A stretch of 64,000 nucleotides of DNA from assembly GCF_055900595.2 (NCBI RefSeq), contig NZ_CM148325.1. One strand, given 5' to 3'. Shown here piece after piece: positions 42,209 to 43,335 of the stretch. The position numbers and the translations under genes are program-made. The notes beneath the pieces were generated by a model that did not search any database, was not told the DNA's origin, and was given only the letters and a program-made list of their open reading frames with translations. Every line of letters starts with the position of its first letter. Positions within the stretch are counted from its first letter, which is position 1.

Positions 42209-42535
42209 ATGACTAAAAATACACGTTTTTCCCCCGAAGTCCGTCAACGGGCAGTTCGTATGGTTCTGGAAAGTCAGGACGAATATGACTCACAATGGGC
42301 GGCAATTTGTTCCATAGCTCCAAAGATTGGCTGTACGCCAGAGACTCTGCGTGTCTGGGTTCGCCAGCATGAGCGGGATACCGGGGGCGGTGATGGTGGG
42401 CTCACCACCGCTGAACGTCAGCGTCTGAAAGAGCTGGAACGTGAAAATCGTGAACTGCGCCGCAGTAACGATATCCTTCGCCAGGCTTCCGCTTATTTTG
42501 CGAAGGCGGAGTTCGACCGCCTCTGGAAAAAATAA
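42209..42535 (+). CDS. IS629-like transposase OrfA
   Basis: [23 protein letters not shown]..; 108 aa. Confidence 0.85.
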
Positions 42536-43335
42536 TGCCACTGCTGGATAAGCTGCGTGAGCAGTACGGGGTCGGACCGGTATGCAGTGAACAGCATATT
42601 GCCCCGTCAACGTATTACCATTGTCAGCAGCAGCGGCATCATCCTGATAAACGCAGTGCCCGTTGTCAGCGCGATGACTGGCTGAAGAGAGAGATACAGC
42701 GCGTATACGATGAAAATCATCAGGTGTACGGTGTGCGTAAAGTCTGGCGTCAGTTGTTACGGGAAGGAATCAGGGTGGCCAGATGTACAGTGGCGCGCCT
42801 CATGGCGGTTATGGGACTTGCCGGTGTTCTCCGGGGTAAAAAGGTCCGCACTACCGTCAGCCGGAAAACCGTTGCTGCAGGTGACCGCGTAAACCGTCAG
42901 TTCGTGGCAGAACGTCCTGACCAGCTGTGGGTGGCTGATTTTACTTACGTCAGCACATGGCAGGGCTTCGTCTATGTGGCGTTCATCATTGATGTGTTTG
43001 CCGGATACATCGTGGGGTGGTGGGTCTCATCGTCTATGGAAACGACATTCGTGCTGGATGCGCTGGAGCAGGCGTTGTGGGCCCGCCGTCCGTCCGGCAC
43101 CATCCATCACAGCGATAAAGGCTCTCAGTATGTGTCACTGGCCTATATGGAGCGATTAAAAGAAGCAAAACTGCTGGCATCAACAGGGAGTACAGGCGAC
43201 TCGTATGACAACGCGATGGCGGAGAGCATCAATGGTCTTTACAAAGCGGAGGTAATACACCGTAAGAGCTGGAAAAACCGTGCAGAAGTGGAACTGGCCA
43301 CACTCACGTGGGTGGACTGGTATAACAATCGATGA
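42535..43335 (+). pseudogene. IS629-like transposase OrfB, truncated by premature TGA
   Basis: Ends ..WVDWYNNR*; the expected remaining C-terminus LLGRLGHTPPAEAEKAYYASIGNNDLAA is encoded in frame directly after the stop. Confidence 0.8.

Follow-up and report, generated by a model that had tools for sequence, protein, structure and literature searches.

Next to the pap fimbrial genes of a pheV genomic island, the orfB gene of an IS629-like insertion sequence (IS) ends in a TGA codon although the usual C-terminus of the transposase is still encoded behind it, which raises the question of whether a recent point mutation has switched off a mobile element or whether the stop is one mark of an older insertion in decay. 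We addressed this question in a window of 64,000 nucleotides, the whole stretch of DNA analyzed here (NCBI RefSeq assembly GCF_055900595.2, contig NZ_CM148325.1). The element is very probably an old IS629/IS1203-type insertion at the papI-side boundary of the pap module in the pheV island, fixed, passive and decaying, with the stop as one of several lesions.

The features of the element are collected in Table 1. Its inverted-repeat ends read TGAACCGCCCCGGG... and ...CCCGGGGAGGTTCA (TGAACC...GGTTCA), corresponding to the TG...CA termini expected of the IS3 family, and, as in that family, an orfA (HTH) and an orfB (DDE rve) overlap and are accompanied by -1 programmed frameshift signals. Read directly from the sequence, an A6 slippery run lies at 42527-42532 and the orfA stop and orfB start overlap as TAATG, orfB beginning at 42535 in the -1 frame relative to orfA. 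PGAP also marks the ALIL feature at the same place; this pseudoknot is the frameshift stimulator of the IS629-type group. By the sequence, slippage by -1 at the second AAA would yield OrfAB as OrfA plus Ile plus OrfB, 404 aa in intact copies, in agreement with the 1214-nt joined CDS given by PGAP for an IS1203 copy. The exact OrfA protein is found on at least 1000 contigs and matches UniRef entry Q6KD56_ECOLX. OrfB has Pfam domains PF13276, PF00665 and PF13683, and its read-through translation scores 304.8 bits against the NCBIfam model NF033516 (transpos_IS3; cut-off 160). The DDE triad and the K/R expected seven residues past E are all present in the protein of the window (D135, D194, E230 and K237), with D135 and D194 invariant and E230 and K237 conserved in at least 90% of a 30-sequence alignment. 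What a functional copy would have, an uninterrupted orfAB encoding the 404-aa transposase, is interrupted here by TGA at orfB codon 267. No second IS629-like copy able to supply transposase was found within the window, and a promoter and terminator scan gave nothing above shuffled expectation.

Table 1. Features of the IS629/IS1203-type element, with positions in the 64,000-nt window.
Feature	Position	Strand	Evidence or remark
Complete 1310-bp IS3-family element, IS629/IS1203/IS3411 group	42155..43464	+	Inverted repeats; gap-free full-length alignment to intact IS1203-type copies; Nissle 1917 identity
Terminal inverted repeats	42155-42195 / 43424-43464		41 nt, imperfect, 76% complementary
orfA, intact, 108 aa, HTH_Tnp_1	42209..42535	+	Pfam PF01527, E=1.8e-12
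ALIL pseudoknot, -1 frameshift stimulator across orfA/orfB overlap	42490..42606	+	Rfam RF01497, 116.3 bits, gathering score 50, full model 1-117
Truncated orfB, 266 aa, HTH_21 + rve DDE core, ends at premature TGA	42535..43335	+	
L20Q, T-to-A change at conserved site	42593	+	Leu in 26/29 relatives
A44C, three-base codon replacement GCG to TGT	42664..42666	+	
R163W, older C-to-T change, common to ATCC 25922 same-locus allele	43021	+	Position variable in family
Nonsense codon TGA, ancestral CGA, R267	43333..43335	+	C in 4/4 comparison copies, T here
Orphaned in-frame orfB 3' end, 28 codons + original stop	43336..43422	+	Conserved loop + last helix
C-to-A change in right inverted repeat, 7th base from outer end	43458	+	Nissle-like subset only

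Within the IS3 family, the element falls into the IS629 group: it has the group's length and, compared with a copy that PGAP names 'IS3-like element IS1203 family', a nucleotide identity of 96.3%. Isoforms are by ISfinder convention at least 95% identical in nucleotide sequence, and we applied this threshold, at ~1310 bp, with the PGAP-named copy as reference in place of an ISfinder sequence. IS1203 and IS3411 have been treated as isoforms of IS629, whose subtypes differ by 4-5% (PMC3271280). The window copy shares with IS1203/IS3411 (IS3 family, IS51 group) the length of 1310 bp, the TGAACCGCCCCGGG... ends, the 108-aa orfA, the TAATG overlap and the ALIL pseudoknot, and its OrfB is identical to that of the PGAP-named copy at 285 of 295 residues; unlike IS1203, it has TGA at codon 267, one base change in the right inverted repeat (IRR) and no target-site duplication. 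IS629 sensu stricto (the Shigella sonnei / O157:H7 type) has the same architecture and length, and an IS629-family fragment is ~93.8% identical to the window copy over the 3' half compared. Judged by nucleotide identity, the window copy is nearer the IS1203 type than IS629 sensu stricto. The closest intact copy found, on plasmid CP056557.1, is 98.5% identical, and the window copy differs from it by four replacements (L20Q, A44C, R163W and T205M) besides the stop. All three comparisons agree with the IS629-like identity given in the initial annotation.

The truncated OrfB ends in ...WVDWYNNR before the TGA. Translated in frame past this codon, the DNA gives LLGRLGHTPPAEAEKAYYASIGNNDLAA up to the original stop at 43420-43422, a tail that agrees at every residue with the C-terminal end in the closest intact copy (CP056557.1) and at all but one with that in the intact PGAP-named IS1203 copy. 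Given that this continuation is open and fully homologous over 28 codons, a chance pattern is ruled out. At base 43333 the window has T. The four copies used for comparison all have C and read TATAACAATCGA-CGA-TTGCTGG; they are the ATCC 25922 allele of this locus, the intact copy named IS1203 by PGAP, the intact plasmid copy in CP056557.1 and the 'IS629 family' fragment. By this comparison, the orfB stop is a C-to-T nonsense mutation, R267*. The initial annotation had read the locus in the same way, as a CGA to TGA point mutation ahead of a canonical C-terminus still encoded in frame, and had named a stop at the same position in reference IS629 as the observation that would overturn this reading. 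Both parts hold: the 28 sense codons after 43333-43335 match the normal end, the context of the changed codon is otherwise identical, and no stop occurs there in the comparison copies, the IS629-family fragment included. A sequencing error at the TGA was considered and rejected, as 674 complete-genome records contain exactly the same TGA-bearing 61-mer.

The catalytic residues D135, D194 and E230, as well as K237, lie upstream of the stop and are all retained. The stop itself falls in a conserved region: in 29 relatives selected for full length (40-61% identity), N264 does not vary, position 267 is Arg in 28, and P277 and E281 are conserved in 29 and 28, respectively. The NCBIfam IS3 model reaches residue 281, and in the truncated protein the match to Pfam rve_3 stops at position 55 of the 67 in the model. 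An AlphaFold2 model of the read-through OrfB (mean pLDDT 89) has helices at 249-265 and 277-294 (the last helix), joined by a loop at 266-276, with block means of 97 (261-270), 96 (271-280) and 89 (281-290), and 55 over the last five residues. A Foldseek search with this model retrieved solved integrase and transposase structures at probability 1.00 and E ~1e-8. These are generic DDE integrases and transposases, with the catalytic fold of the RSV, MMTV and HIV intasomes, IstA and TnsB matched at 12-19% sequence identity in the best 50 matches; a sequence search of the PDB for a close solved homologue found none. Given that the stop removes the conserved loop and the last helix of the predicted catalytic domain, R267* very probably abolishes or cripples transposase activity, and the view that it 'immobilises' the copy is plausible. 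Given that L20Q affects a position occupied by Leu in most relatives, the copy may also have been impaired independently of the stop.

The distribution of the stop bears on its age. A 1421-bp segment comprising the IS and both junctions is 100% identical in at least 30 genomes (Nissle 1917 and 29 others among the matches listed), and 674 complete E. coli genome records have an exact match to the 61-mer with the TGA at its centre. The junction between IS and flank is present in 771 genomes on the right, papI side and in 733 on the left. A second allele with a 1-bp deletion in orfB is exact in 86 records; by an indirect reconciliation of counts, both alleles together account for 760 of the 771 right-junction genomes, and the ~11 junction-bearing genomes outside both alleles could hold an intact copy. 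The TGA was checked directly at this locus in the 30 listed full-length matches and in SK1144, Ecol_542, CREC7837 and EC958; all the TGA copies inspected share this papI-side position, and the window has one copy. These counts suggest that essentially every copy at the locus is dead, by two independent routes, TGA and 1-bp deletion.

The TGA allele is found at the same locus in both Nissle 1917 (ST73) and EC958 (O25b:H4-ST131). The Nissle 1917 copy, RefSeq pseudogene CIW80_RS08605, is 100% identical to the window copy and has the same flanks; the EC958 copy, RefSeq pseudogene EC958_RS16565, also has the same flanks and differs only at 43458, with 4 mismatches and one gap in the surrounding 13.5 kb. 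PGAP attaches the note 'IS3 family transposase; programmed frameshift; internal stop' to the copies in Nissle, Ecol_542, CREC7837 and EC958, and the exact 266-aa product is found on at least 1000 contigs of the protein collection, with a UniRef entry from an O25b strain. The R267* pseudogene is already known, being annotated in RefSeq, and is biologically ordinary. The insertion itself is older still: given that a 3-kb region of ATCC 25922 containing the IS and both flanks is 98.3% identical to the window, with identical junctions, the insertion predates that divergence.

The initial annotation had proposed a recent mutation and had suggested checking whether the allele is fixed in related strains. 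It is fixed in a widespread island lineage, and, given its presence in 674 records that include ST73 and ST131, it is neither recent nor strain-specific and predates the spread of this island type. The idea that the IS629 copy of this strain was otherwise intact and mobile until one recent point mutation, by itself, switched it off agrees with a stop that is one C-to-T change of CGA, and with an orfA, an ALIL frameshift signal and DDE residues that are all intact. However, besides the wide distribution of the allele, L20Q, A44C, R163W, T205M and an IRL-proximal change co-occur with the stop, the target-site duplication is absent, and the newest change in the window is IRR base 43458 and not the stop. 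We therefore regard this explanation as improbable, and 'single' is no better a description of the lesion than 'recent'.

To order the changes, we polarised them against both intact copies, taken as outgroups. Common to the window lineage and the ATCC 25922 allele are 6 synonymous changes, 2 replacements (R163W and T205M) and 1 non-coding change. After the split, the window branch acquired 1 synonymous change, the replacements L20Q and A44C, the stop itself and, outside the coding sequence, changes at 42185 (close to the left inverted repeat) and 43458, and the ATCC branch acquired 1 synonymous change, 7 replacements and the 1-bp deletion, at the position of 42854, which shifts the orfB frame. 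The mostly non-synonymous changes on both branches, few in all, point to relaxed constraint. Base 43458 is C in ATCC 25922, IS1203, the CP056557.1 plasmid copy, the IS629 fragment, Ecol_542, CREC7837 and EC958. Given that the last three have the TGA with C still at 43458, the 43458 change, and not the stop, is the newest in the window lineage.

Two further observations concern individual changes. The GCG to TGT replacement differs from all other copies and looks like a multi-nucleotide substitution rather than three separate hits. In CREC7837 (NZ_CP200274.1, L007), the copy at the same locus has identical flanks and the same TGA, and its interior of ~600 bp (equivalent to window 42580-43188) is IS629-type sequence, matching the IS629-family fragment at 385 of 388 bases and the window at 354 of 388. 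By its sequence this interior is a gene-conversion patch between IS copies, in which L20Q, A44C, R163W and T205M would have been reverted and the stop kept.

The abundance of the exact 266-aa protein, on at least 1000 contigs, and its retention of the N-terminal HTH and the DDE core could also be explained if the truncated protein were kept as useful, either as a trans-acting inhibitor of IS629-family transposition or as a domesticated DNA-binding protein. Truncated transposase derivatives do act as inhibitors in other systems, Tn5 Inh and IS911 OrfA being examples. However, the flanks are equally conserved (4 mismatches and one gap in 13.5 kb against EC958), and, given that they are as conserved as the gene, the identity reflects recent common descent and not selection; moreover, the sister allele is destroyed by a mid-gene frameshift, and the substitutions are mostly non-synonymous. 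We consider a useful protein highly unlikely. There is an equally slim chance that truncated OrfB or OrfAB is expressed as a dominant-negative or inverted-repeat-binding inhibitor that damps IS629/IS1203 expansion in ExPEC with this pheV island; if true, this would help explain the spread of the TGA allele. That the TGA is read through or recoded, with full-length transposase still made, is barely credible even though UGA is the leakiest stop codon in E. coli, because Rfam finds only ALIL, STnc490 and AS-pc02 and no recoding signal in 41500-44000, intact relatives encode Arg at 267 (28/29 distant relatives), and decay of the sister allele by frameshift means that a full-length product is not preserved at the locus.

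The surroundings of the element are those of a known island. Most of the window aligns at 99.95% identity with the pheV genomic island of E. coli Nissle 1917, which contains nan, iha, sat, iutA-iucABCD, a truncated pap operon, a P4-like integrase and tRNA-Phe. This Nissle-like island is an intP4.1-type GI-pheV, a class described as mosaic, with insertion sequences standing between its modules (PMC11537424). The IS lies ~520 bp beyond the 3' end of papI (43986-44219, minus strand), between the pap remnant and mobile-element debris consisting of an ISL3 fragment (40723-41469) and a 108-bp 'Rz' fragment. Its junctions read ...GATTACTG|TGAACC on the left and GGTTCA|GTAATATC on the right. The 3-4 bp target-site duplication of the IS3 family was not found here, the flanks being CTG on the left and GTA on the right; an IS1203 copy inside traG has the expected 3-bp duplication (TTC/TTC). 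Given this absence, the present flanks are probably not the original target. This would be expected if the IS had served as a recombination or deletion point at a module boundary; the missing duplication fits such a later rearrangement and is no argument against membership in the IS3 family. A clean pre-insertion site could not be reconstructed from E138, which has only the left flank, or from RIVM_C036204, which has only the right, as these flanks abut other IS fragments.

The history of an old, passively inherited and decaying insertion would then run as follows. An IS629/IS1203-type IS would long ago have entered the pheV island where the pap module ends on its papI side, and the island would since have passed it on as a fixed, passive component, decaying in place. 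In the island lineage of the window, a C-to-T change would have turned the Arg codon 267 of orfB from CGA into TGA, leaving predicted products of 375 aa instead of 404 (OrfAB) and 266 aa instead of 295 (OrfB), both without the conserved loop and final helix of the integrase-like catalytic domain. Given this truncation, the transposase is most probably inactive and the copy would no longer be self-mobile. The later mutation in the inverted repeat has probably made it a poorer substrate for transposase from other copies as well.

At this locus, a stable pseudogene marks one lineage of the intP4.1-type pheV island, and variants of the island could be typed in a simple way by the TGA and 1-bp-deletion alleles. 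The locus also illustrates how IS copies decay at island module boundaries, with occasional patching by gene conversion. Beyond such bookkeeping it matters little, and the understanding of IS3-family transposition is unchanged.

Several minor observations were made around the element. In E138, the 65 bp to the left of the IS (window 42090-42154; E138 L009 2496-2560) end at exactly the same base, and an ISEc20 (IS110-family) transposase gene follows ~170 bp further on, this being the location of the gene and not of the ISEc20 end. The left-flank break in E138 may mark either a hot spot for IS insertion or the end of an older element. The window contains at 40723-41469 the C-terminal part of an ISL3 transposase gene, from ...DEVAFKKGHRY, and RIVM_C036204 (L008 2149-2500) contains an ISL3 N-terminal part that ends in ...DEVAFKKG directly against the same papI-side flank; by their sequences, a single ISL3 element appears to have been broken, with its complementary halves now in the two island types. 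Two Rfam matches at gathering level flank the IS: STnc490 just to its left (41870-41992, plus strand, 65.5 bits) and AS-pc02, 'antisense to pHK01_099', between the IS and papI (43657-43835, minus strand, 58.6 bits).

Further away, an IS66-family element at 18253-21300 (tnpA/tnpB/tnpC ORFs at 18655-21270) is present in the window and absent from Nissle 1917, where ~1.6 kb of the IS30/ISEc52 region occupies its place. Collinearity with Nissle ends at 51739, inside the 3' end of tRNA-Phe, of which ~23 nt are kept; ARAGORN found no tRNA in the window. From 51739 to 64000 follows another island module with DUF4942, DUF5983 and RadC/JAB (yee/CP4-like), which suggests two islands in tandem at pheV, and for the arrangement beyond 51739 the best complete-genome match is only ~95% identical. 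Finally, iucD (29774-31051, minus strand) is an uninterrupted 425-aa ORF in the window and is listed as 'frameshifted' in the Nissle 1917 record (CIW80_RS08680).
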